Below are positions 1-19,681 of a stretch of DNA of 21,672 nt, piece after piece. The DNA is from a virus. Its lineage: Duplodnaviria; Heunggongvirae; Uroviricota; Caudoviricetes. Both the position numbers and the translations under genes were made by a program. Below the pieces are notes generated by a model. The model searched no databases. It saw only the letters and a list, made by a program, of their open reading frames with translations, and was not told the DNA's origin. Location of the stretch: the IMG/VR virus record IMGVR_UViG_637000261_000001, one strand, 5' to 3'. Within the stretch, counting starts at the first letter, position 1, and each line of letters starts with the position of its first letter.

Positions 1-1354
<1,354 letters not shown>

Positions 1355-1672
1355 TGGTTAGCAATAGCAAATTTACTCCCAGCTGCTCTGATTTCAAGAA
1401 AGCTGTACACCTCCCTTATGCCTATATTTTTAACCGGAACACCACCAAAGTATTCACTTATGATTTTCAACCTCTGGTTGTGTCTTTTCATGGTGTTTGT
1501 GCTTAATTGTCTACGCTCTATTTCATTTCTGAAATTTAATATCAGCTCGCAGAATAATGTTACGCTATTACCTTTTATTCTATCCAGTAAGCTTATATGT
1601 TGCGTGGATAATAATTCCATATTTGCCGCAATAGCCTCATTAACTGCAATTCTTTTGTCTCTTCCGATTCCA
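1355..1672 (-). pseudogene. Internal fragment of a tyrosine recombinase / phage integrase-like gene (N-terminal core-binding-like region), bounded by IS1 and IS911
   Basis: About 106 codons (…LSTNTMKRHNQRLKIISEYFGGVPVKNIGIREVYSFLEIRAAGSKFAIANQYRALLS) with the spacing pattern of an integrase SAM-like domain; both ends run into IS sequence. Confidence 0.3.
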
Positions 1673-1687
1673 GGTAATGACTCCAAC

Positions 1688-4002: not shown

Positions 4003-4044
4003 TGAACCGCCCCGGGTTTCCTGGAGAGTGTTTTATCTGTGAAC

Positions 4045-4935
4045 TCAGGCTGCCAGATCATCGTTTCCGATGGAAGCATAATAAGCTTTTTCTGCTTCTG
4101 CCGGAGGGATGTGGCCCAGCCTTTCCAGCAATCGTCGATTATTATACCAGTCCACCCACGTGAGTGTGGCCAGTTCCACTTCTGCACGGTTTTTCCAGCT
4201 CTTACGGTGTATTACCTCCGCTTTGTAAAGACCATTGATGCTCTCCGCCATCGCGTTGTCATACGAGTCGCCTGTACTTCCTGTTGATGCCAGTAATCCG
4301 GCTTCCTTAAGCCGCTGTGTGTAGGCCAGCGATACATACTGAGAACCTTTATCACTGTGATGGACCGTGCCGGACGGTCGACGGGCCCATAACGCCTGCT
4401 CCAGAGCATCCAGCACGAATGTCGTTTCCATGGACGATGAGACCCGCCACCCCACGATGTATCCGGCAAACACATCAATAATGAACGCCACATAGACGAA
4501 GCCCTGCCATGTGCTGACGTAAGTAAAATCAGCCACCCACAGCTGGTCAGGTCGTTCTGCCACGAACTGACGGTTTACGCGGTCGCCTGCGGCAACGGCT
4601 TTCCGGCTGATGGTCGTACGGACCTTTTTACCCCGGAGAACACCGGCAAGTCCCATAACCGCCATGAGACGTGCCACAGTGCATCTGGCCACTCTGATAC
4701 CTTCCCGTAACAACTGACGCCAGACTTTACGCACACCGTATACCTGATGATTCCCATCGTATACGCGCAGTATCTCTTTCTTCAGCCAGTCATCGCGCTG
4801 CGCACGGGCACTGCGTTTATCAGGATGATGTCGCTGTTGCTGACAGTGGTAATACGTTGACGGGGCAATATGTAGTTCACTGCATACCGGTCCGACCCCG
4901 TACAGCTTACGCAGCTTATCCAGCAGTGGCATCAC
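4045..4935 (-). CDS. IS629 transposase OrfB
   Basis: 296 aa ORF identical to copy 3 OrfB. Confidence 0.9.
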
Positions 4936-5258
4936 TTTTTCCAGAGGCGGTCGAACTCCGCCTTCGCAAAATAAGCGGAAGCCTGGCGAAGGATATCGTT
5001 ACTGCGGCGCAGTTCACGATTTTCACGTTCCAGCTCTTTCAGACGCTGACGTTCAGCGGTGGTGAGCCCGCCATCACCGCCTCCGGTATCCCGCTCATGC
5101 TGGCGTACCCAGACACGCAGAGTCTCCGGTGTACAGCCAATCTTTGGGGCAATGGAACAAATTGCCGCCCACTGTGAGTCATATTCGCCCTGACTTTCCA
5201 GAACCATACGAATCGCCCTCTGACGGACTTCGGGGGAAAAACGAGTATTTTTAGTCAT
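4932..5258 (-). CDS. IS629 OrfA
   Basis: 108 aa [23 protein letters not shown]...; overlaps orfB in the -1 frame. Confidence 0.9.
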
Positions 5259-5312
5259 CCTGTTTACCTCTTTCTCAGGAAGTTTAGTCTCCAGGATTCC
5301 CGGGGCGGTTCA

Positions 5313-6363: not shown

Positions 6364-6605
6364 TTAAAGTTCGTGTGCCATCTTGTCTTTTTCGGCACAA
6401 GCTGCACCGCAATATTTTCGTTTCTTTCTGGCAATCATGTTTCCATGCATATAAATAAGCTCGCCAGTAAAAGCTTTTTCAGGTAAAAACTGTTTATTGC
6501 AGAGATGGTAATCACATTGTATTAAATCCGGGTCACCTTTTTGCTGGAGAATTTTTCTGATTCTCCACAGCCATTTTTTAATCCCGGTATGACTGATGGT
6601 CTGCC
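6364..6605 (-). pseudogene. 3' fragment of an unknown gene with a Cys-rich (CxxxxC ... CxxxC) C-terminus, cut at 6605/6606 by the IS600 end
   Basis: ...LIQCDYHLCNKQFLPEKAFTGELIYMHGNMIARKKRKYCGAACAEKDKMAHEL-stop; the upstream part of the track ORF 6364..6621 is IS600 sequence. Confidence 0.2.
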
Positions 6606-7386
6606 TGAGGTGTACTGGCAATAGCGGACACTACCATTTGTTCTTTTTTTAAGCAGCCATCTGATGATATTTTTCCCTGAAGGCTGCCGGGGAGATATTC
6701 CCCAGACGAGAGTGACGACGCTGACGATTGTAGAAAATCTCAATGTATTCCCGTATTACTGAGATGGCTTCATCCCGGTTATTAAAACGATAGTGGCTCA
6801 GGCTCTCATTTTTCAGCGTTCCCCAGAAGCTTTCCATCGGAGCGTTGTCGTAACAGTGACCTTTACGCGACATTGATGTTTTCAGACCAGACTGCTCCTG
6901 TATGACCCGGTAATCGTATGCGCAGTACTGTGAACCTCGATCAGAGTGGTGGATTAGCCCGGCAGGTGGGCGCTGGCTCCTGAGCGCCATAAACAGGGCT
7001 TTACCTGTCAGCTCTTTTGTCATGCGCTCTCCCATGGCGTAGCCGACAATTTCGCACGTATAAACATCTTTGATGCCAGCGAGGTACAACCATCCCTCCT
7101 GTGTGGCAACATACGTCAGGTCCGCCACCCAGACCTGATTTGGTGCTGTAGGAGCGAACGTCTGGTTCAGCAGATTTGGCGCAACTGGCAGATTGTGGTT
7201 CGGGTTCGTAGTCGCTCTGAACTTGCGTTTCTGCTTACAGCGTAGCCTTAGCTCCTTACGAAGACGTGCCAGTCGGTCACGACCAACGATGATGCCATTC
7301 TCTGCCAGCTCCGTCTGGAGCCGCCGGGTTCCATATGTTTCGCGAGTGCGGATATGTGCCACCTTAATCTCCAGTTTTAGCCGCTC
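6606..7386 (-). mobile_element. IS600 3' part (orfB 3' portion plus right terminal repeat), inverted relative to the 5' part at 3518..4002
   Basis: Terminal repeat TGAGGTGTACTGGCAATAGCGG at 6606; the junction with IS629 at 7386/7387 carries CTC, the complement of the GAG at 4000..4002. Confidence 0.85.
6649..7386 (-). pseudogene. IS600 OrfB, 5'-truncated fragment
   Basis: Matches residues ...ERLKLEIKVAHIRTRETYGTRRLQ...YHQMAA of the intact OrfB at 16958..17776. Confidence 0.85.
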
Positions 7387-7440
7387 TGAACCGCCCCGGG
7401 AATCCTGGAGACTAAACTCCCTGAGAAAGAGGTAAACAGG

Positions 7441-7767
7441 ATGACTAAAAATACTCGTTTTTCCCCCGAAGTCCGTCAGAGGGCGATTCGTATGGTTCTG
7501 GAAAGTCAGGGCGAATATGACTCACAGTGGGCGGCAATTTGTTCCATTGCCCCAAAGATTGGCTGTACACCGGAGACTCTGCGTGTCTGGGTACGCCAGC
7601 ATGAGCGGGATACCGGAGGCGGTGATGGCGGGCTCACCACCGCTGAACGTCAGCGTCTGAAAGAGCTGGAACGTGAAAATCGTGAACTGCGCCGCAGTAA
7701 CGATATCCTTCGCCAGGCTTCCGCTTATTTTGCGAAGGCGGAGTTCGACCGCCTCTGGAAAAAGTGA
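7441..7767 (+). CDS. IS629 OrfA
   Basis: 108 aa, identical to copy 2 OrfA. Confidence 0.9.
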
Positions 7768-8654
7768 TGCCACTGCTGGATAAGCTGCGTAAGCTGTACG
7801 GGGTCGGACCGGTATGCAGTGAACTACATATTGCCCCGTCAACGTATTACCACTGTCAGCAACAGCGACATCATCCTGATAAACGCAGTGCCCGTGCGCA
7901 GCGCGATGACTGGCTGAAGAAAGAGATACTGCGCGTATACGATGGGAATCATCAGGTATACGGTGTGCGTAAAGTCTGGCGTCAGTTGTTACGGGAAGGT
8001 ATCAGAGTGGCCAGATGCACTGTGGCACGTCTCATGGCGGTTATGGGACTTGCCGGTGTTCTCCGGGGTAAAAAGGTCCGTACGACCATCAGCCGGAAAG
8101 CCGTTGCCGCAGGCGACCGCGTAAACCGTCAGTTCGTGGCAGAACGACCTGACCAGCTGTGGGTGGCTGATTTTACTTACGTCAGCACATGGCAGGGCTT
8201 CGTCTATGTGGCGTTCATTATTGATGTGTTTGCCGGATACATCGTGGGGTGGCGGGTCTCATCGTCCATGGAAACGACATTCGTGCTGGATGCTCTGGAG
8301 CAGGCGTTATGGGCCCGTCGACCGTCCGGCACGGTCCATCACAGTGATAAAGGTTCTCAGTATGTATCGCTGGCCTACACACAGCGGCTTAAGGAAGCCG
8401 GATTACTGGCATCAACAGGAAGTACAGGCGACTCGTATGACAACGCGATGGCGGAGAGCATCAATGGTCTTTACAAAGCGGAGGTAATACACCGTAAGAG
8501 CTGGAAAAACCGTGCAGAAGTGGAACTGGCCACACTCACGTGGGTGGACTGGTATAATAATCGACGATTGCTGGAAAGGCTGGGCCACATCCCTCCGGCA
8601 GAAGCAGAAAAAGCTTATTATGCTTCCATCGGAAACGATGATCTGGCAGCCTGA
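7764..8654 (+). CDS. IS629 transposase OrfB
   Basis: 296 aa; starts GTG 7764 / ATG 7767, overlapping the orfA stop. Confidence 0.9.
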
Positions 8655-8696
8655 GTTCACAGATAAAACACTCTCCAGGAAACCCGGGGCGGTTCA

Positions 8697-9707
8697 ATCG
8701 GGCTGAAAGTGGCGTCATGGGTGCGGGGGCTGACAAAAGCCCTCAGTGGCCCCGGAGGCCTTCTTTTTGCGATAACGGCGCTTTACCCGGTTGTTGACGG
8801 ATTACTGACATCCATTGTTGGCAGGGAAAATAAGGACTGGCTGGATTCACATGGTTTTTTCTGGGCTTCAGACGGGACTTTCTTTTTCAATAAGAAAGAG
8901 ATGGAGACGTATCAGACAAAACTGGATGTCGGAGAAAAGCCTGGCAACATCACCCGGGCACAATCACCCACAGTATGGCAGCAGGGCATGCTGGATACTC
9001 AGGCTTCTCAGGCAACCGGGAGGGAAGCAGCCTTCGGTGAATCCTGGCTACAGGGTATGCGTGCGACGCAGGAAAAACTCGGTAATGCCATGCAAAACCG
9101 CCAGCGACCGACGAAGACCGGGGAAGCCCTGTTAGGCTGGCTGCAACCGAAACTGTCTCAACTGGAGGAAAAATATAACCTGCCGCCCGGACTGCTGCGC
9201 AGCGTTGCGATCACCGAATCCCGTGGTAATCAGTTTGCCGTCTCACCTGCTGGTGCGATGGGACTGTTTCAGTTCATGCCGAAGACGGCCAGTGAATTTG
9301 GTCTGAGGGGGAACGATGCCTTTGATCCCGAAAAAGCCGCTGATGCCGCCGCGAGAAAACTTGGTGGCCTGATACGTTTTTTTCATGGCGATCTGGCTAA
9401 GGCTCTGGCGGCATATAACTGGGGAGAGGGAAATGTTCAGCGTAAGGGACTGGCTGCTGCTCCGGAGGAGACCCGCAACTATATTCCGCGGGTGCTGGCG
9501 AACCTGCCTTATCCGGGTGCGGCAATGGCCATACGGTCGCTCCATCCTGCGCCTGTATCGCAGTCCACCGTAACGGAAACCACGCATATCGGGACACTGA
9601 ATGTCACCACAACGTCGGACAATGTGAAGGGTATTACCGATGACGCACGTCGGCGTATCACGAATTCGGCGCTTGTGTCGGTTTATTCCAGCGGGGTAAC
9701 AGGATGA
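8697..9707 (+). pseudogene. Phage virion / tail-associated protein with a lytic transglycosylase (SLT) domain, N-terminally truncated by IS629
   Basis: Open frame runs straight out of the IS629 end; contains ...ESRGNQFAVSPAGAMGLFQFMPKTASEFGL...AYNWGEGNV..., matching the SLT catalytic-Glu / GLMQ / AYN signature. Confidence 0.6.
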
Positions 9708-10414
9708 GTTTTTCTTTCGATAATATTTCCCTGAATAACTTTTCGCTCAGTGAAAGTAACGTACTGAGTGCAGTTCGTGGCGGCGGTGTCCTGGGACTCA
9801 TTAATAGTGTACTGGCACCGTCATTCGGTATTTATTACGCACGGAATGATCCGGCAGGTGCCCATCAGAAGGGTGGCAAACCTTTCTCCCCGGATTCTTT
9901 TGTTGTCGTTGAGGTGGGCGCGGAGGCTTCTGTTTCCACCGTCCCCGTGGAGCAGGGGGCTTATACCACCTTTAATAAAATCCAGAGATCGCCGGAACTG
10001 CATGTGACTTTCATTGTAGAGGGGTGGACGGCCTTTTCCGGATCCGTCCCGAACCTGACAAATTTTTCCACCACCTCGCGGACGAATGTGCTGGAAACGC
10101 TTGAAAGGATGCGTACCACGGCAGGACTCTACGATATTGAGACGCCGGACAAGACATGGACATCCTGCGACCTTGTGAAATATGACTACCGAATGCGAAG
10201 TAATAATGGTCCGACCTTACTGACGGTTACTGCGGTATTTCAGACCGTAATGAATACAGGAGAGGTGTCAGTGGGAAGTACGGATAAGTCGTCTCCCACG
10301 GACAACGATAAAGCAAAAGGGGCCGCATCGGTTAAAACGCAGCCAGTTACGGCGTCGGTGACACAACCGTCAGACGCTGACAGACGAAGTGCCACGAACA
10401 GGGGGATCACCTGA
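9704..10414 (+). CDS. Hypothetical phage structural protein (236 aa)
   Basis: ATGA start/stop overlap with the upstream gene; Ser/Thr-rich; identity not recognised. Confidence 0.4.
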
Positions 10415-10716
10415 TGCTGGAAATTGTTTTATCTCCCGTTAAAGCCCAGCAGTTTACGGTGACACTGGGCGCTCAGGTCTGCACCATTCGCCTGAATCAG
10501 CGTACTACGGGGATGTATATCGATATCATTGTTAATGGTGAACCGTGCCTGTATGGCGTGCTGTGTCTGAATAATAACCGGATTGTCCGGTACGGATACC
10601 TGCCGTTTCAGGGGGACCTGTTTTTTACCGACACGGAGGGGAATAGTGACCCTGACTGGCGGGGGCTCGGATCCCGGTACCGGCTCTACTGGCTGTTACC
10701 TGAGGAACTGATATGA
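10414..10716 (+). CDS. Hypothetical phage structural protein (100 aa)
   Basis: TGATG overlap with the upstream gene; identity not recognised. Confidence 0.4.
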
Positions 10717-10737
10717 GCTACAGACAACGTAAAATAA
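10713..10737 (+). pseudogene. Eight-codon 5' stub (MSYRQRKI) of the next phage gene, cut by the IS66-family element
   Basis: ATGA overlap with the preceding stop; the frame runs directly into the IS terminal repeat at 10738. Confidence 0.3.
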
Positions 10738-10823
10738 GTAAGCGTAAACTGACCGCCGTATGTAGCCATTAAGCCTGTATTGGTAACGTAGGTGCCCACC
10801 TTTTCAACTAGTGGACACCTGTT

Positions 10824-11243
10824 ATGGAACAGAAAGCATTATCTGCAGAACCCCGCAGATCATTTTCAAATGAGTTTAAACTTCAAATGGTTAAACTGGC
10901 TTCACAACCAGGAGCCTCTGTTGCCCGTATTGCCCGGGAACACGATATCAATGATAACCTGCTGTTCAAATGGCTCAGGCTCTGGCAGAACGAAGGGCGC
11001 ATATCGCGGCGTCTTCCGGTAACAACCTCTTCTGACACTGGCGTTGAATTATTACCTGTGGAGATAACGCCGGATGAGCCGAAAGAACCTGTGGCTGCTC
11101 TTACTTCGTCTTTATCTACTCAGACTACAGTTAGTGCCAGCTCCTGCAAGGTGGAGTTCCGTCACGGTAACATGACGCTGGAAAATCCTTCACCAGAGCT
11201 GCTCACAGTGTTGATCCGTGAACTGACCGGGAGGGGACGATGA
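10824..11243 (+). CDS. IS66-family accessory protein TnpA
   Basis: 139 aa with N-terminal HTH-like region; first ORF of the element. Confidence 0.8.
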   Translation: MEQKALSAEPRRSFSNEFKLQMVKLASQPGASVARIAREHDINDNLLFKWLRLWQNEGRISRRLPVTTSSDTGVELLPVEITPDEPKEPVAALTSSLSTQTTVSASSCKVEFRHGNMTLENPSPELLTVLIRELTGRGR

Positions 11244-11590
11244 TCTCACTCCCGTCAGGCACCCGCATCTGGCTCGTTGCTGGGATAACCGATATGCGTA
11301 AGTCTTTCAACGGGCTGGGTGAACAGGTACAGCATGTGCTGAATGATAATCCCTTCTCCGGTCACCTGTTCATCTTCCGTGGCCGACGGGGTGACATGAT
11401 TAAAATCCTGTGGGCTGATGCTGATGGTCTGTGCCTGTTCACCAGACGCCTGGAGGAAGGCCAGTTTATCTGGCCTGCTGTGCGTGACGGCAAGGTATCC
11501 ATTACCCGCTCGCAACTGGCAATGCTCCTCGATAAGCTGGACTGGCGTCAGCCAAAAACATCCCGCCTTAATGCACTGACAATGTTGTAA
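11240..11590 (+). CDS. IS66-family TnpB
   Basis: 116 aa MISLPSGTRIWLVAGITDMRKSFNGL...; ATGA overlap with tnpA. Confidence 0.85.
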   Translation: MISLPSGTRIWLVAGITDMRKSFNGLGEQVQHVLNDNPFSGHLFIFRGRRGDMIKILWADADGLCLFTRRLEEGQFIWPAVRDGKVSITRSQLAMLLDKLDWRQPKTSRLNALTML

Positions 11591-11620
11591 AAATGTCATG
11601 GCCGGATTATAAAAACGGCC

Positions 11621-13213
11621 ATGAATCAAAAATACCTCATTCGCATTGCAGAACTGGAATGCCAGCTCCGTCAGAAAGACCAGCAACTGAGTCTGGTTGA
11701 AGAGACGGAGGCCTTCCTGCGCTCTGCACTGGCCCGCGCCGAAGAAAAGATCGAAGAAGATGAACGGGAAATAGAACATCTGCGGGCTCAGATAGAAAAA
11801 CTGCGCCGGATGCTGTTCGGTACCCGTTCTGAAAAACTGCGTCGTGAAGTTGAACAGGCTGAGGCCCTGCTGAAACAACGCGAACAGGACAGTGATCGTT
11901 ACAGTGGGCGGGAAGACGATCCGCAGGTTCCCCGCCAGTTGCGACAGTCTCGTCATCGTCGCCCGTTACCGGAGCATCTGCCCCGCGAAATAAATCGCCT
12001 GGAGCCAGAAGAAAGCTGTTGCCCGGAGTGTGGCGGTGAGCTGGATTATCTGGGGGAAGTCAGCGCAGAACAACTGGAACTGGTGAGCAGCGCTCTGAAA
12101 GTGATCCGCACAGAACGGGTAAAAAAAGCCTGTACAAAATGTGACTGAATCGTTGAAGCACCGGCACCATCCCGTCCGATAGAGCGTGGTATCGCGGGCC
12201 CGGGGTTACTTGCCCGCGTGTTAACGGGAAAATACTGCGAACACCTGCCACTGTATCGTCAGAGTGAAATTTTTGCCCGTCAGGGTGTCGAACTGAGCCG
12301 TGCATTACTCTCCAACTTGGTTGACGCGTGCTGCCAGTTAATGACGCCGCTGAATGATGCTCTGTACCGTTATGTAATGAACAGCCGCAAAGTTCACACT
12401 GATGACACACCAGTAAAAGTGCTGGCACCGGGCAGGAAGAAGGCGAAAACAGGATATATCTGGACGTATGTCCGGGATGACAGGAATGCCGGTTCGCCAG
12501 AGCCTCCGGCGGTCTGGTTCGCCTACTCACCGGACCATCAGGGTAAACATCCGGAGCAGCACCTTAGTCCCTTCCGGGGTATCCTGCAGGCAGATGCGTT
12601 TAATGGTTACGATCGGCTGTTCAGTGCCGAACGAGAAGGCGGCGCGTTGACGGAAGCAGGATGCTGGGCTCATGCGCGGCGCAAAGTCCACGATGTATAT
12701 ATCAGTACCAAAAGCGCGACAGCGGAAGAAGCCCTGAAACTAATCGGTGAGCTGTACGCCATCGAGCACGAAATACGCGGGTTGCCGGTGTCTGAACGCC
12801 TGGCGGTCAGGCAAATGCAGAGTAAACCGCTACTGACTTCCCTGTATAAGCTGATGCAGGAGAAAGAACACACGTTATCGAAAAAATGCCGTCTGAGAGA
12901 TGCGTTCCGGTATATCAGGAAGCACTGGGTTGCGTTGTGCAACTTCAGTGATGATGGTCTGGCTGAGGCGGATAATAATGCCGCGGAAAGAGCGCTTCGT
13001 GCAGTCTGTCTCGGAAAGAAAAACTTTATGTTCTTCGGCAGCGATCACGGTGGAGAGCGTGGTGCGCTACTGTACGGGCTGATCGGCACCTGCCGACTGA
13101 ACGGTATCGATCCGGAAGCGTATCTGCGCTATATCCTGAGCGTACTGCCGGAATGGCCTTCCAACCGTGTTGACGAACTCCTGCCATGGAACGTAGCACT
13201 CACCAATAAATAA
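11621..13213 (+). pseudogene. IS66-family transposase TnpC interrupted by an in-frame TGA at 12146..12148
   Basis: The track splits it into 11621..12148 and 12218..13213, but the frame is continuous across the stop (...CTKCD-stop-IVEAPAPSRPIERGIAGPGLLARVLTGKYCEHLPLYRQ...). Confidence 0.8.
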
Positions 13214-13243
13214 GCGTCAATACGGTGCTCCGTTGACGCTTAC

Positions 13244-13988
13244 CCATGATACTGATGTAGTCACGCTTTATCGTTTTCACGAAGCTCTCTGCTATTCCGT
13301 TACTCTCCGGACTCCGCACCGCCGTGTTCTTCGGTTCAAGTCCCAACATCCGGGCGAACTGGCGTGTTTCATTAGCCCGGTAGCATGAACCATTATCCGT
13401 CAGCCACTCCACTGGAGACGACGGAAGATCGTTGCCGAAGCGGCGTTCCACCGCACCCAGCATGACGTCCAGTACTGTTTCACTGTTGAAGCCGCCGGTA
13501 GTCACCGCCCAGTGCAGTGCCTCACGATCACAGCAGTCCAGCGCGAACGTGACACGCAGTCTCTCTCCGTTATCACAGCAGAACTCGAACCCGTCAGAGC
13601 ACCATCGCTGATTGCTTTCTTTCACGGCCACTCTGCCTGTATGTGCCCGTTTCGATGGCGGTACAGCAGGTTTTCGCTCAAGCAACAGCGCATTCTGGCG
13701 CATGATCCGGTAAACACGTTTGGCATTGATCGCAGGCATACCATCAAGTTCTGCCTGTCTGCGAAGCAGCGCCCATACCCGACGATAACCATACGTGGGC
13801 AGCTCTCCGATAACATGGTGTATACGGAGAAGCACATCCGTATCATCAGTGTGACGACTGCGGCGGCCATCCATCCAGTCATCGGTTCGTCTGAGAATGA
13901 CGTGCAACTGCGCACGCGACACCCGGAGACAACGGCTGACTAAGCTTACTCCCCATCCCCGGGCAATAAGGGCGCGTGCGCTATCCAC
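13244..13988 (-). pseudogene. insD: IS2 InsD (OrfB transposase), C-terminally truncated
   Basis: [34 protein letters not shown]...KRDYISIM, then unrelated residues read from IS66 sequence. Confidence 0.85.
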
Positions 13989-14311
13989 TTTTTTGCCCGT
14001 CCATATTCAACGGCTTCTTTGAGGAGTTCATTTTCCATCGTTTTCTTGCCGAGCAGGCGCTGGAGTTCTTTAATCTGCTTCATGGCGGCAGCAAGTTCAG
14101 AGGCAGGAACAACCTGTTCTCCGGCGGCCACAGCAGTAAGACTTCCTTCCTGGTATTGCTTACGCCAGAGAAATAACTGGCTGGCTGCTACACCATGTTG
14201 CCGGGCAACGAGGGAGACCGTCATCCCCGGTTCAAAGCTCTGCTGAACAATTGCGATCTTTTCCTGTGTGGTACGCCGTCTGCGTTTCTCCGGCCCTAAG
14301 ACATCAATCAT
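13946..14311 (-). CDS. insC: IS2 InsC (OrfA)
   Basis: [56 protein letters not shown]...; the track ORF begins 15 codons upstream inside the IS2 leader. Confidence 0.9.
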
Positions 14312-14401
14312 CTGTACTCCAATGACTAGTCTAAAAACTAGTATTAAGACTATCACTTATTTAAGTGATACTGGTTGTCTGGAGATTCAGGGGCCAGTCT
14401 A

Positions 14402-14727
14402 ATCAGGCACCGTTTTACAACGGAAAATCGGATACCCGGACTGTTGACCTGTCTGATGCTGTATACCGGCGGCTGATACTGATGAAAGCCATGTCGAACA
14501 TTACTGACTGTTCCGTTCCGGATATTAACCGGATGCTGAGATTTATGTTCGGAAAAAAACGGCGAGCTTATGTTCTGAATAATGGTGGGCTGAGGATGAG
14601 TTACATCTTTGAGTCCGCGCTCTCGTTGGCAGAACTGGCGATTATCCAGTCGTCGGGTGCACTGCCGTCCCCGCCGGGTGTTTATGTTTCAGTAGTTTTA
14701 AAGGAGTCCCGTAATGAAGGCCAGTGA
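14402..14727 (+). pseudogene. C-terminal fragment of a phage tail/baseplate gene preceding the tail fiber gene, truncated by IS2
   Basis: Open frame continues out of the IS2 end and overlaps the tail fiber start by 14 nt; function inferred from position only. Confidence 0.3.
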
Positions 14728-16099
14728 TAAACCCCGCCAGCTGGCGGTCCCCTTTGCGAGTACCGGAGATAAAAACCGTATCCCGGACAAGGCGACACAG
14801 CAGACCAGAGAGAGCGGTAATGCTGCGTATGATTCAGGTTTTCCTCCGGTGACCATGACAGCGGTCTCAGCGGGAGGTATACCGCCACACGGCAAGGATT
14901 TTAACGGTCTGATGTACGATATTACCGCAGCAATACGGTTCGCCCAGGCTGGCGGTTTGTACACGTATAATGCCGGTTTTGCGGGGGCCATTGGTGGATA
15001 TGCAAAAGGAGCCATTCTCGCCGGAGTCGCAACAACAGCGGTCTGGCTGAATACCACAGACGATAACCTGACCGATCCTGAAGGCTCCGACAGTGCGGGC
15101 TGGGTAAATCTTCTTGAGGATCCGAAAAGGATATTCCTGCGGCAGAAGAACAATCTGTCAGACCTTCAGAATAAAGGGACGGTACGGGATAATCTTCAGG
15201 TTTACAGTAAAGAGCAGTCAGATCAACGCTATGTTCATCGGGAAGGCGATAAAATAACCGGAGAGCTGAAAATCCGTGGTGTTAATGCGCTGAGGATTTT
15301 CAACGAAGCTTTTGGCCTGATTTTTCGTCGTTCGGAAGAGTGCCTGCACCTTATTCCCACCAGTGAAGGTCAGGGGGAAAATGGCGATATTGGTCCCCTG
15401 CGCCCGTTCACCATTAATTTGCGGACGGGTGAAATATCCATGTCGCATAAAGTGTCTGTTGGCGGTGGTTCGCAGGTCAATGGTGCGCTGGGTATCGGCG
15501 TTCAGAACGCCCTGGGGGGGAATTCAATTGTTCTTGGTGATAATGACACCGGATTTAAACAGAATGGAGACGGTATTCTGGATGTTTATGCTAATAGTCA
15601 GCGTGTATTCCGCTTTCAGAATGGAGTGGCTATTGCTTTTAAGAATATTCAGGCCGGAACTGCCAGAAAATTCACGTTATCCAGCGCCAACAACTCCACG
15701 AAAAATGCAGCGTTTTATTTGTGGGGTAATCCATCCAGGTCTGTTGTTGCAGAGCTTGGCGATGATTCAGGCTGGCATTTTTTCAGCCAGAGGAATACAG
15801 ATAACAGCATCACGTTCGCCGTAAACGGACAGGTAATTCCGTTAAATTACGGAAACTTCGATGCCCGCTATAAATATCGAACAGAGGGGGTACAGGATGT
15901 ACGGTATGGCCATGAAATGTATTACAGCCCCGGCAGTAACACCGTTTCGTGGAGATTTCGCGCACCTTCGGGACACGGGCTGTCAGGGATAGCGATATCG
16001 GATACCGGCCGTGACTCAGCGGATAACGTCAACGGCGTGTATTACCGCCCGCTTCAGAAACTGATTAATGGCACCTGGTATAACGTGGCGAGTGTTTAA
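14714..16099 (+). CDS. Phage tail fiber protein (461 aa)
   Basis: Strong RBS AAGGAG 8 nt upstream; N-terminal ...[17 protein letters not shown]... motif typical of tail fiber proteins; Gly/Asn-rich C-terminal region; followed directly by a tail fiber assembly gene. Confidence 0.6.
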
Positions 16100-16101
16100 C
16101 A

Positions 16102-16647
16102 ATGTTGCATTTAAAAAATATTACTGCGGGCAATCCGAAAACCGTGGAACAATATCAGCTGACAAAACAATATGATGTCACCTGGCTTTTTTCGAAAGAC
16201 GGAAAAAACTGGTATGAAGAGCTGAAGAATTTCGCCAGCGACACAATTAAAATAACTTACACCGGAGACGGTCGCGTGGTGTGGGTCGGTAAGGATGTGA
16301 CTGGCATTGAACCCCGTAACGCCAGTGTTATTGAAGTTCCTGATATTACCGCCAACCGCCGCATTACCGCGCCGGGTTACTGGTTTTACCGCAATGATGA
16401 ATTTGTCTTTGACTACAGACTCAAAGCGGAAGATGAGCGTGATGCCCTTCTGGCTCAGGTCAGTGCCCGGACAGGGGAATGGGAAGAAGACCTGCTGCTG
16501 GGGCTAATCAGCGACGAAGACCGGGAAAAACTGAAAGCGTACCGCATTTACGCGAAATCGCTGCAGGCGATGGATTTCAGTGTCATCACTGATAAAACCT
16601 CATACAACGCCATTGAATGGCCCGCCTCTCCGGAAATTTCTTCCTGA
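16102..16647 (+). CDS. Tail fiber assembly protein (Tfa family)
   Basis: C-terminal ...DREKLKAYRIYAKSLQAMDFSVITDKTSYNAIEWPASPE resembles the conserved C-terminus of lambda Tfa-type chaperones. Confidence 0.65.
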   Translation: MLHLKNITAGNPKTVEQYQLTKQYDVTWLFSKDGKNWYEELKNFASDTIKITYTGDGRVVWVGKDVTGIEPRNASVIEVPDITANRRITAPGYWFYRNDEFVFDYRLKAEDERDALLAQVSARTGEWEEDLLLGLISDEDREKLKAYRIYAKSLQAMDFSVITDKTSYNAIEWPASPEISS

Positions 16648-16957
16648 TTTAATTTATCGCGAGAAAAACTATGTCTGTAGTGATATCAGGTGCGCTGACT
16701 GATGGCGCAGGTATCCCCATGTCCGGATACCATATTATTCTGAAATCCCGGGTAAACACCCCGGAAGTGGTGATGCACACTGTTGCTGATGTGATGACAG
16801 GAAACGATGGTGAATACTGTTTCCATGCGCGGACTGGAAAATATGGTGTGTATCTGAAACCGGGCTGGCACAACGAGTACAACGTTGGCGACATTGCTGT
16901 ATATGAGGACTCAATGAGGTGTACTGGCAATAGCGGACACTACCATTTGTTCTTTTT

Positions 16958-17776
16958 TTAAGCAGCCATCTGATGATATTTTTCCCTGAAGGCTGCCGGG
17001 GAGATATTCCCCAGACGAGAGTGACGACGCTGACGATTGTAGAAAATCTCAATGTATTCCCGTATTACTGAGATGGCTTCATCCCGGTTATTAAAACGAT
17101 AGTGGCTCAGGCTCTCATTTTTCAGCGTTCCCCAGAAGCTTTCCATCGGAGCGTTGTCGTAACAGTGACCTTTACGCGACATTGATGTTTTCAGACCAGA
17201 CTGCTCCTGTATGACCCGGTAATCGTATGCGCAGTACTGTGAACCTCGATCAGAGTGGTGGATTAGCCCGGCAGGTGGGCGCTGGCTCCTGAGCGCCATA
17301 AACAGGGCTTTACCTGTCAGCTCTTTTGTCATGCGCTCTCCCATGGCGTAGCCGACAATTTCGCACGTATAAACATCTTTGATGCCAGCGAGGTACAACC
17401 ATCCCTCCTGTGTGGCAACATACGTCAGGTCCGCCACCCAGACCTGATTTGGTGCTGTAGGAGCGAACGTCTGGTTCAGCAGATTTGGCGCAACTGGCAG
17501 ATTGTGGTTCGGGTTCGTAGTCGCTCTGAACTTGCGTTTCTGCTTACAGCGTAGCCTTAGCTCCTTACGAAGACGTGCCAGTCGGTCACGACCAACGATG
17601 ATGCCATTCTCTGCCAGCTCCGTCTGGAGCCGCCGGGTTCCATATGTTTCGCGAGTGCGGATATGTGCCACCTTAATCTCCAGTTTTAGCCGCTCATCAC
17701 TTTGTTTTCTGTCTGAGGGTTCATGCTGTACCCAGTTGTAATAACCGCTCCTGGATACACCAAATACCTGACACAT
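16958..17776 (-). CDS. IS600 transposase OrfB
   Basis: 272 aa MCQVFGVSRSGYYNWVQHEPSDRKQSDERLKLEIKVAHIRTRE...; DDE-type motifs HHSDRGSQY and YDNAPMES. Confidence 0.9.
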   Translation of the reverse strand: MCQVFGVSRSGYYNWVQHEPSDRKQSDERLKLEIKVAHIRTRETYGTRRLQTELAENGIIVGRDRLARLRKELRLRCKQKRKFRATTNPNHNLPVAPNLLNQTFAPTAPNQVWVADLTYVATQEGWLYLAGIKDVYTCEIVGYAMGERMTKELTGKALFMALRSQRPPAGLIHHSDRGSQYCAYDYRVIQEQSGLKTSMSRKGHCYDNAPMESFWGTLKNESLSHYRFNNRDEAISVIREYIEIFYNRQRRHSRLGNISPAAFREKYHQMAA

Positions 17777-17811
17777 CGCTTCAATGGGAAATTGTTGTCG
17801 CCATTGTTCGA

Positions 17812-18114
17812 TTAACGCGTATTTTTCAGCGACTCCTGTGCAAAATACGCTGTTGCTTTTTTTAATATATCTCGCTCAAGGCGAGCTTCATTTAACGCCT
17901 TACGCAGTTGCAGAATTTCAGATTCCAGTTCAGCCACCGTGCGGGAACCAGGAGTACCGAGCCCTTTTCTGGCGGCGGTAACCCATTGTCCTAAAGTGCC
18001 TTCAGGAAGGGATAATCGGGAAGCGCCTTCACTGATCGAAAGTTGATTTTCAAGAACCGTTCTGACAGCTTCGGCTTTGAACTCTTTAGAGTAACGTTGG
18101 TTTTTTCTGCTCAT
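17812..18114 (-). CDS. IS600 OrfA
   Basis: 100 aa; A7 run (TTAAAAAAAGC on the minus strand) near its 3' end, orfB in the -1 frame. Confidence 0.9.
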   Translation of the reverse strand: MSRKNQRYSKEFKAEAVRTVLENQLSISEGASRLSLPEGTLGQWVTAARKGLGTPGSRTVAELESEILQLRKALNEARLERDILKKATAYFAQESLKNTR

Positions 18115-19096
18115 TATTAGCTCCTTCTGATGCCATTCTATTTCAGGAAGGAGTGTCCGTTAAACTCAGGCTACCTCACAAAGCCCGGCACGCTGAATGA
18201 CTTTCTGATTGCTCCTGATGAGGGCGACCTGAAACCGGATGTCGTCAAACGCTTTGAGGAAATGGTGGTGCAGGCGCAGCAGAGCGCCGGGGCCGCAGCC
18301 GGAAACGCACAGCAGACGGCGCAGGATGTGGCGGCAGCCGCAACGGCCCGTGATGATGCACAACGTTTTGCGGAGAATGCCAGACAGGATGCAACCGTCA
18401 CAGCTGAGGACAGAAAGGCCACTGCGGAAGATGTGACAAGCACAGGAGCAAATGCAGCCGCAGCCGGACAGAGCGCACAGGATGCCGCAGGTTATGCCCG
18501 CGCAGCAGAACAGGCCAAAAATGACATTGATGCTGCGCTGACCGGCACTCTGAAAATGGCTAACCATCTGTCAGAAATCGCAGCAGCAGGCGAAAAGGCA
18601 CAACAGAAGTCCCGGGATAATCTGGGGCTGAAAAGTGCGGCCACGATGGAAGCACAGAGCGACATTTACGACCGGACAAAAGGCCGTCTGGCGATACCCG
18701 GCGCATTCGGCTTTGGGTGTGCTTTTCTGCCTGAAGATGTTATCCGTTTTGACACTAAGAGTGATTTCCTGGCCTGGGTAAGGAATGCGCTGCCAGGTGA
18801 ATATTCCGTTGCTGGCCCCTACGACATCATCATACCCGACACACGGTTTGAAGGGGTGCTCAGCATCCGGTGGACTGATGCACGCCCTGAGACAACAGAA
18901 CCGCGGTACAGAGCCAAATCCCTTACTTTTTACGGCATTAACGGCCCCATTTATCACACCCGCTACTGCTACTGGCCCATATCCAGACTGACTGACTGGG
19001 TGAAAATAAATATAACCACAGAAGATATTATTTACAGAATCGTGGCGAGCTCTGTCCGCAACAGATGGGGAGCCCCTGACATTGGCGGGCTGATTA

Positions 19097-19681
19097 TTGC
19101 TGCGTACCAGGGAGAAGCTGACGGTGATAAAGTCATCAGACTTGTCAGGGGGCAGTCATACAGAGGCTCACGACTGGGACCGGTGGGGATTTCAGTGCCC
19201 AGTACTCCCCTACACAGCCACCGCTGATGATGTCGCTCCGACGGGTCAGCAAATCTGGCAGGAACTGCAAAGCGGCAAATGGGGTGAGATAGCCCCATTC
19301 ACTGTGACACCAGAAATGCTGGAAGCGGCCAGAGAGGCCAGACGTCAGGAAATTGAAGCATGGCGCGCAGAACAGGAGGCGAAGCCGTTCACGTTTGAAT
19401 GGAACGGTCGTATCTGGAATGCTGGTCCCGACTCACTGGGCCGCCTGTCCCCGGTAGTCATGCTGGCAAAATCTGTCGCGGCACAAACACATATGGTGTG
19501 GAGCGATGCGGATAATCAGCAGGTGAAACTGTCGATGCCGGAACTGGAAGAACTGGCGGCAGCAATGGTGCAGGCGCAGGTCGATCGCAACGATGAGATT
19601 TATCGCCGTCAGCGTGAAATGAAAGAGGAGCTGAGCGGTCTGGATGATTTGGCTTCAATTCGGGCGTTTGACGTTGAGTAA
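19097..19681 (+). CDS. Tail-fiber-associated C-terminal region or assembly-type protein; probably the frameshifted continuation of stf
   Basis: Overlaps the stf frame by about 130 nt in the +1 frame with no plausible independent start or RBS; a G5 run at about 19148..19152 is a candidate indel site. Confidence 0.4.
   Translation: MLRTREKLTVIKSSDLSGGSHTEAHDWDRWGFQCPVLPYTATADDVAPTGQQIWQELQSGKWGEIAPFTVTPEMLEAAREARRQEIEAWRAEQEAKPFTFEWNGRIWNAGPDSLGRLSPVVMLAKSVAAQTHMVWSDADNQQVKLSMPELEELAAAMVQAQVDRNDEIYRRQREMKEELSGLDDLASIRAFDVE

Follow-up and report, generated by a model that had tools for sequence, protein, structure and literature searches.

A tail-operon relic bounded by insertion sequences in an ipaH-carrying prophage remnant of Shigella boydii Sb227

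Introduction

Among the closest described systems to the locus treated here are the solved tails and baseplates of several phages. [quoted passage not shown] The tube initiator of phage phiTE has the same fold as the tube proper and makes up the first ring, of six-fold symmetry, on the hub (PMC11972413), and in the Pseudomonas phage Pa193 a transglycosylase domain has been reported within the tape measure protein, for which ejection to digest the peptidoglycan has been proposed (PMC11456595).

Here we describe the remains of a gene block of this kind within a DNA stretch of 21,672 nt (the window). In a nucleotide comparison of retrieved loci the window was 100% identical to CP000036.1 over 20,414 nt. 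This accession is the chromosome of strain Sb227, which belongs to Shigella boydii serotype 4 (PMC8767353), and earlier papers already use this genome sequence as a reference.

Results

On sequence evidence, the window is part of a prophage remnant of S. boydii Sb227 that carries ipaH and is riddled with insertion sequences. By a rough tally of sequence matches, IS DNA makes up more than half of it: three copies of IS629, two of IS1, pieces of IS600 and IS911, one IS66-family element and another element of the IS3 family. Between these copies lie fragments of one prophage, among them an integrase remnant, the block under study (8697-10737), a second fibre gene split by IS600 and a DUF4376 gene, and the right end has, on the minus strand, a gene for an ipaH-type NEL E3 ligase. 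The wedge and fibre genes further downstream (Table 1) can be assigned, from their collinearity and domains, as the next surviving piece of the tail module to which the block belongs.

Table 1. Coordinates of the block, of its parts and of the neighboring elements in the window (L001, intact reference locus of Escherichia coli)
Feature	Position	Strand	Basis
IS629 copy, 1310 bp, upstream break; orfB ends at 8654	7387..8696	+	99.8-99.9% vs the window's other IS629 copy (4003-5312)
Predicted 3' half of tail tape measure gene, 336 codons + stop, pseudogene fragment	8697..9707	+	collinear with L001 19998-21008, inside the 673-aa gene
ORF called in this fragment, 332 aa, GTG start	8709..9707	+
Predicted SLT domain (GH23-type lytic transglycosylase)	9162..9479	+	Pfam PF01464, E = 5e-26, 91 bits vs cut-off 21.3, residues 152-257
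SLT motif TESRG (Glu codon 9216-9218)	9213..9227	+	read in sequence
SLT motif GLFQFMP	9261..9281	+	read in sequence
SLT motif AYNWG	9411..9425	+	read in sequence
Predicted tube initiator (baseplate tube, Dit-like), 236 aa, intact ORF	9704..10414	+	Pfam, family profile, predicted fold
Predicted baseplate plug (spacer between hub and wedge), 100 aa, intact ORF	10414..10716	+	Pfam Pam3_gp18 PF22479
Putative hub gene start, 8 codons (MSYRQRKI) + 1 nt	10713..10737	+	equals L001 22014-22038, start of a 289-aa 'baseplate hub protein'
IS66-family element, downstream break; transposase split into two ORFs	10738..13213	+	HTH_Tnp_1, TnpB_IS66, LZ_Tnp_IS66/zf-IS66 and DDE_Tnp_IS66 in the ORFs
Wedge fragment (DUF2612/Phage_Wedge1), tail fibre (14714-16099) and tail fibre assembly (16102-16647)	14365..16647	+	collinear with L001 24638-27002; Pfam DUF2612 2.4e-31, Caudo_TAP 1.6e-25

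The block had been described beforehand, in a reading made from the letters alone (the sequence-only reading), as three consecutive genes joined by overlapping stops and starts and interrupted on both sides, with IS629 upstream and, eight codons into a fourth gene, an IS66-family element. Both statements proved accurate. The overlaps can be read directly in the DNA (ATGA at 9704-9707, TGATG at 10412-10416 and ATGA at 10713-10716), and the 4-nt ones reflect the close spacing of genes that is common in late operons, an arrangement that would probably allow coupled translation. The junctions fall at 8696/8697 and 10737/10738. On the upstream side, the IS629 copy has terminal inverted repeats (TGAACCGCCCCGGG...) at both ends, and the last base of the repeat that closes it (...CCCGGGGCGGTTCA) is at 8696; a deposited phage record annotates the stretch that matches this end as the IS629 right inverted repeat. 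On the downstream side, similarity to the intact locus ends at 10737, and the IS66-family element begins with GTAAGCG at 10738, its far end adjoining the other IS3-family element.

Intact versions of the block, with all the genes whole and 99.6-99.8% nucleotide identity, were present in 9 of 5,426 complete E. coli genomes. As the intact reference we have used the one in NZ_CP119441.1 (L001), an enteroinvasive-type E. coli with 99.8% identity over the block, in which positions 19998-22038 correspond exactly to 8697-10737 of the window. The element in L001 is located between yebY and pphA and includes an integrase, an excisionase, Rha, CI/Cro-like regulators and a replicative helicase. Its tail genes are, in order, a DUF3383 sheath (split by an IS), a protein of 148 aa at the tube position (which resembles Pfam E217_Gp32), a tail assembly chaperone of 134 aa, an ORF of 60 aa, an SLT protein of 673 aa, the 236-aa protein, the 100-aa plug, the 289-aa hub, spike, sheath initiator, baseplate J, wedge and fibres, followed by ipaH3. 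The RefSeq proteins of the intact allele are WP_000079878.1, WP_000010342.1 and WP_000890114.1, the 673-aa product being named 'lytic transglycosylase domain-containing protein'. The intact alleles of E. coli and S. flexneri serotype 6 have the same chromosomal site and ipaH cargo as the copy in the window, and in the E. coli copies the genes for hub, spike and sheath initiator are preserved as well.

The first gene is represented by an ORF at 8709-9707, but this is not a complete gene with its native start: the homologous frame is already open at 8697, and the GTG at 8709, chosen as start by the ORF finder, encodes a Val inside the parent gene. The window copy keeps residues 338-673 of the 673-aa protein, and this fragment aligned to positions 315-656 of the 657 of phrog_2013 ('lytic tail protein') with E = 7.8e-122. 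The N-terminal half, preserved in L001 and missing in the window, matched phrog_9570 (7.1e-18), phrog_2276 (3.4e-15) and phrog_8125 (5.1e-9), all three labelled 'tail length tape measure protein'. Both in L001 and in the phage Edno5 the gene occupies the position expected for a tape measure gene, after the chaperone (phrog_1932, 3e-59, for the L001 gene upstream) and before the tube-initiator and baseplate genes. In a PDB search the SLT region of the full-length protein found the tape measure protein gp41 of Pa193 (9b45_a, E = 1.7e-9) and also gp16 of T7. All this assigns the first gene, by its sequence relationships, to the C-terminal half of a tail tape measure protein and not to a free-standing virion lysin, although what remains in the window is a fragment and not a complete protein that spans the tube and sets the length of the tail.

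Family-1 lytic transglycosylases carry a catalytic Glu-Ser motif together with GLxQ and AYNxG motifs, and enzymes of the SLT/GH23 class cleave the MurNAc-GlcNAc bond with formation of 1,6-anhydroMurNAc. The clear SLT motif that had been pointed out in the first product is well founded, with a Pfam score far above the cut-off and each of the three motifs located within the domain (Table 1). We consider it a genuine SLT domain, of the kind that breaches peptidoglycan at infection, with predicted catalytic activity.

The second and third products had been left outside any known family. Pfam searches of the three products gave SLT, Dit_like and Pam3_gp18, all above threshold, so both small proteins can be placed. 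The observation is not due to chance: homologues reached E values down to 1e-133, and the family of the 236-aa protein includes 1612 representatives of 50%-identity clusters (E <= 1e-3). This protein scored 29.6 bits with Dit_like PF21821 (gathering threshold 24.2, E = 8.4e-7), a domain that is precomputed for most of its homologues, and RefSeq names it 'phage baseplate protein'. When compared with the PDB, a profile of 110 sequences (A2) matched the chain 9cuy_K of phiTE, described as 'Tube initiator protein' (5.9e-7), and gp135 of Phi92 (6e-4); the match to the tube initiator gp17 of Pam3 was weak (E = 0.6). Neither a single-sequence phmmer search of the 236-aa protein against the PDB nor a shallow profile of 16 sequences gave a meaningful match.

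An AlphaFold model of the 236-aa protein built from A2 had a mean pLDDT of 76, with a core of about 85-95. An earlier model from a shallow alignment was poor (pLDDT 53.7), and its fold matches, similar in direction, have not been relied on. A Foldseek search of the PDB returned 36 matches at E <= 1e-3, all of them baseplate, tube or related tail chains. At the top of the list were Bas63, Pa193, phiTE 9cuy_K, E217 and the tube initiator gp17 of Pam3 (7yfz_a), and lower down pyocin, tail tube, Hcp-like and SPP1 Dit chains. The model has a tube-like beta-sandwich core that resembles the solved tube initiators, with TM-scores that are modest (0.4-0.58). From the profile matches and the predicted fold, the 236-aa product is assigned as a tube initiator which, by analogy with the solved virions, would form a hexameric ring between hub and tube.

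For the 100-aa protein the match to PF22479 was extensive (profile positions 1-99 of 101; E = 1.7e-22; 80.2 bits against a gathering threshold of 24.2), and phrog_349 was also found (E = 7.8e-30). In the PDB it matched gp34 of Pa193 (9b45_A) and gp33 of E217 (8env_G), both baseplate components, with E about 0.006. RefSeq names it 'phage baseplate plug family protein'; none of the NCBIfam models reached this protein or the 236-aa one. In the window, in L001 and in Edno5 its gene follows that of the tube initiator and precedes the hub gene, of which the window has only the start. The profile matches and the gene position identify the predicted product as a baseplate plug. The eight-codon stub that follows is, judging from its correspondence with L001, the start of the baseplate hub gene; the 289-aa hub protein of L001 matches Pfam E217_GP41 and phrog_196 'baseplate hub'. 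With the three products and the stub placed in tail or baseplate families, the description of the block as virion genes of a phage holds.

The sequence comparison found in the window no part of L001 17781-19997 or 22039-24637. The sheath, tube, chaperone, hub (beyond the stub), spike, sheath-initiator and baseplate-J genes are absent from it and most wedge genes are missing, so that no tail could be assembled from what is left. [quoted passage not shown] The junction between the hub gene and the IS66-family element was identical in 8 of 8, whereas the junction between IS629 and the tape measure gene appeared only in Sb227 among the loci examined; the others, including the intact E. coli and S. 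flexneri serotype 6 alleles, keep the full 673-aa gene. Because the first junction is common to the eight loci and the second is restricted to Sb227, the IS66-family insertion appears to be the older event and the truncation by IS629 the later one. The losses on the downstream side, namely the hub gene past codon 8 and the genes for spike, sheath initiator and baseplate J, came from the IS66-family insertion and a further deletion; on the upstream side, the half of the first gene that makes up the tape measure was lost, plus the tube and chaperone genes, through IS629 and a deletion associated with it.

Over the nine loci compared, the copies of the block differed by 0-5 substitutions per 2 kb, and neither the 236-aa nor the 100-aa ORF had a disabling mutation in any of the nine. 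With so few differences the intactness of these small ORFs says nothing on selection, and for the comparison of synonymous and non-synonymous changes the 0-5 differences are too few to gauge it.

Discussion

The block is best understood as what is left of the late (tail) operon in a temperate, contractile-tailed phage with a 'simple' baseplate of the Pam3/E217/Pa193 type. In the live phage, by transfer from the solved homologous virions, we infer that the 673-aa tape measure protein would fill the lumen of the tube, with its anchorage at hub and spike. The 236-aa tube initiator would be present in six copies, arranged on the trimeric hub as the first ring resembling the tube, from which polymerisation of the tube would start. 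On contraction, the tape measure protein would be ejected and its C-terminal SLT domain would cut the glycan strands of the peptidoglycan. For the window copy, we consider that the block is an inert relic of a dead prophage's tail operon, with a probability of roughly 93%. This is so because no tail is possible and because the SLT fragment lacks a native start, a Shine-Dalgarno-like sequence and any promoter-like site upstream, and is separated by in-frame stops from the IS629 orfB. Most likely, the SLT fragment and the two intact ORFs are carried along inertly and remain undegraded because their inactivation is recent.

The surviving genes might instead have been co-opted: read-out from IS629 might express the SLT fragment, for example, as an accessory peptidoglycan hydrolase, or the host might have retained the plug and tube initiator for some function of its own. 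In keeping with this, the two small ORFs are intact in the nine loci, the exact 236-aa protein occurs in 673 blocks of the assembly collection, and the SLT fragment retains all the catalytic motifs and has a hydrophobic stretch at its start. However, with copies that differ by so little over 2 kb, intactness reflects recent common ancestry rather than selection. Besides, the number of sites given by the promoter scan did not exceed that of shuffled sequence and none of them lay upstream of 8709, no Shine-Dalgarno-like sequence was found before the GTG at that position, in-frame stops at 8652-8654 and 8664-8666 part the fragment from the IS629 orfB, and the tube initiator and plug have no binding partners remaining in the window. 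We therefore regard co-option as very unlikely. The more particular proposals, i.e., that the fragment works in S. boydii as a periplasmic or membrane-anchored hydrolase, or that the orphan tube initiator or plug benefits the host next to ipaH, are more doubtful still.

Two other origins for the module have been considered and rejected. One is a tailocin or an extracellular contractile injection system in place of a prophage, which would agree with the pyocin R2, diffocin, AFP and PVC baseplate chains among the fold matches and with the lack of visible head genes in L001. Yet the intact locus has the integration, regulatory and replication genes of a phage, IS421 and IS600 insertions occupy its head region, which points to loss and not to absence, and the best matches of both fold and profile are to phage virions. 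The closest deposited phages, temperate or isolated, have matching synteny (Edno5/GF-2, the Klebsiella temperate phages and Pantoea PA-1), and it is the synteny with Edno5 that favours a prophage origin, leaving the tailocin as an extremely improbable source. Edno5 also comes near to being an intact, plaque-forming relative with head, portal and terminase genes beside this tail module. The other is that the SLT protein is a housekeeping or secretion-associated lytic transglycosylase (Slt70, MltC/D/E/F or IpgF/VirB1-like) that happens to lie beside phage genes. The NCBIfam models of MltD, MltC, Slt70 and MltF did match weakly across the SLT domain, but with 16-40 bits against cut-offs of 354-536, while the whole fragment aligned to the phage tail family phrog_2013 and the complete gene, located between chaperone and baseplate genes, encodes tape-measure sequence in its N-terminal half. 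A housekeeping family such as MltE or Slt70 with chromosomal synteny was the outcome that the sequence-only reading had named as fatal to its own proposal; what appears instead are scores below the equivalog cut-offs in a prophage context, and we give this origin a practically negligible chance. The reading of the block as an inert tail-operon relic is the one that we follow below.

The feature is real but ordinary: all its parts belong to described families and the intact alleles already bear the corresponding names in RefSeq. It provides one more example of prophage decay driven by insertion sequences in Shigella. Its value is mostly corrective, in that tube initiator and baseplate plug are the proper labels for the 236-aa and 100-aa proteins, and the 332-aa ORF should be flagged as a truncated tape measure pseudogene and not a stand-alone lytic transglycosylase. 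In addition, S. boydii Sb227 and S. flexneri serotype 6 are known to be related, and the junction of hub gene and IS66-family element found in both agrees with this and provides a minor marker of the lineage.

Comparison with known phages

A megablast search of the block against deposited phage genomes gave matches only over 38-47 nt of the IS629 end included in the query, with no close phage in the collection. The closest deposited phages are Pantoea PA-1, several Klebsiella temperate phages (ST15-VIM1phi2.1 and KP12 among them), and Edwardsiella GF-2/Edno5 (Gofduovirus). In these the homologue of the 236-aa protein has 31-45% identity over 92-95% of its length, and the SLT protein of the Klebsiella phages has 47-50% identity over residues 138-329. 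Unlike the locus in the window they are complete phages and not remnants, and their records label the proteins as hypothetical. The isolated phage Edno5 has the sheath, tube, chaperone, SLT protein, tube initiator, plug, hub, spike, sheath initiator and baseplate J, the order being the same as far as the fibre, but with a Mnt/Arc/Ant regulatory cassette between the SLT and tube-initiator genes.

The Pseudomonas Pbunavirus phages Pa193 and E217 (PDB 9B45, 8ENV/8EON; PMC11456595) have, as here, a tape measure protein with an internal SLT domain; residues 465-579 of Pa193 gp41 were aligned with 463-580 of the 673-aa protein (1.7e-9). The plug resembles Pa193 gp34 and E217 gp33, and the predicted fold of the tube initiator is like those of 9b45_S/V and 8eon_A/D. 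They differ in being lytic phages with genomes of about 66 kb and another gene order, with the plug-like gp34 of Pa193 placed before its tape measure gene, gp41. Moreover, there are three tube-like baseplate proteins in Pa193 (the baseplate tube and two ripcords), whereas only one was seen here.

Compared with Pam3 (PDB 7YFZ), the sequence identity is very low, and the profile match to gp17 reaches only E = 0.6. This locus also differs from the cyanophage in its enterobacterial host, in coming from a temperate phage, in the presence of an SLT domain in the tape measure protein, and in that the window copy is truncated and non-functional. However, the 100-aa protein belongs to the Pfam family built on Pam3 gp18, and 7yfz_a is among the fold matches of the modelled 236-aa protein. 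The gene order of Pam3, i.e., tape measure, gp17 tube initiator, gp18 plug, gp19 hub, gp20 spike, gp21 sheath initiator, gp22/23 wedge and gp24 fibre, is identical to that found in L001.

Insertion sequences and degraded genes of the prophage

The coordinates of the features found around the tail-gene remnant, together with one gene of the E. coli locus L001 (NZ_CP119441.1), where an intact counterpart of this remnant is present, are listed below.

Features identified in the window and in the E. coli locus
Feature	Location	Strand	Remarks
Lambda-type integrase N-terminus remnant	window 1243-1686	-	Weak matches to Arm-DNA-binding and SAM-like domains
IS66-family element	window 10738-13213		Transposase in two ORFs, 11621-12148 and 12218-13213
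Another IS3-family element	window 13200-14356		Adjoins the far end of the IS66-family element
Second tail fibre gene, ORF pieces	window 16671-16961 and 18130-19227		"Prophage tail fibre N-terminal" domain
IS600, complete copy	window 16911-18178		Disrupts this fibre gene
ipaH-type type III secretion effector gene	window 19861-21672, continuing beyond the right end	-	LRR_TTSS and NEL E3 ligase domains
148-aa gene between sheath and chaperone (tail-tube position)	L001 17929-18375		PGAP name "phage tail fiber protein"

The clearest marks of lineage are the junctions of the insertion sequences. An identical junction between the hub gene and the IS66-family element (window 10723-10754; position about 11019 in the eight Shigella-type loci, L002-L009) occurs both in Shigella boydii Sb227 and in the chromosomes of S. 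flexneri serotype 6, and the truncation of the tape measure gene by IS629 was found, among these eight loci, only in Sb227. Both junctions could be used as lineage markers. The IS66-family element of Sb227 is itself probably defective, since its transposase is split in two, whereas three of the loci (L003, L005 and L009) carry an unbroken 530-aa version.

The integrase remnant is truncated beside an IS1 copy (1673-2440). The flanks of IS600 match the E. coli locus, one side up to 27002 and the other from 27000 on. The ipaH-type gene is collinear with ipaH3 of this same locus, and it is probably owing to this cargo gene that the dead prophage is still recognisable.

Annotation and accession records

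The 148-aa product of the E. coli locus matches the Pfam family E217_Gp32, "Tail fiber protein gp32". Its position and size suit a tube protein, which is what it looks like, and for this reason its PGAP name may be a propagated mislabel. There is also a minor accession inconsistency: CP160646.1 (L008) is recorded as a 4,631,379-bp chromosome, whereas the table in PMC11708030 places 4,631,379 bp under CP160645 and gives CP160646 as the virulence plasmid.

Comparison with Edwardsiella phage Edno5

The tail operon of Edwardsiella phage Edno5, an isolated phage with the same tail-gene order, includes a Mnt/Arc/Ant-like antirepressor cassette resembling P22 immI (6545-7962), which in Edno5 is located between the tape measure and tube-initiator genes.
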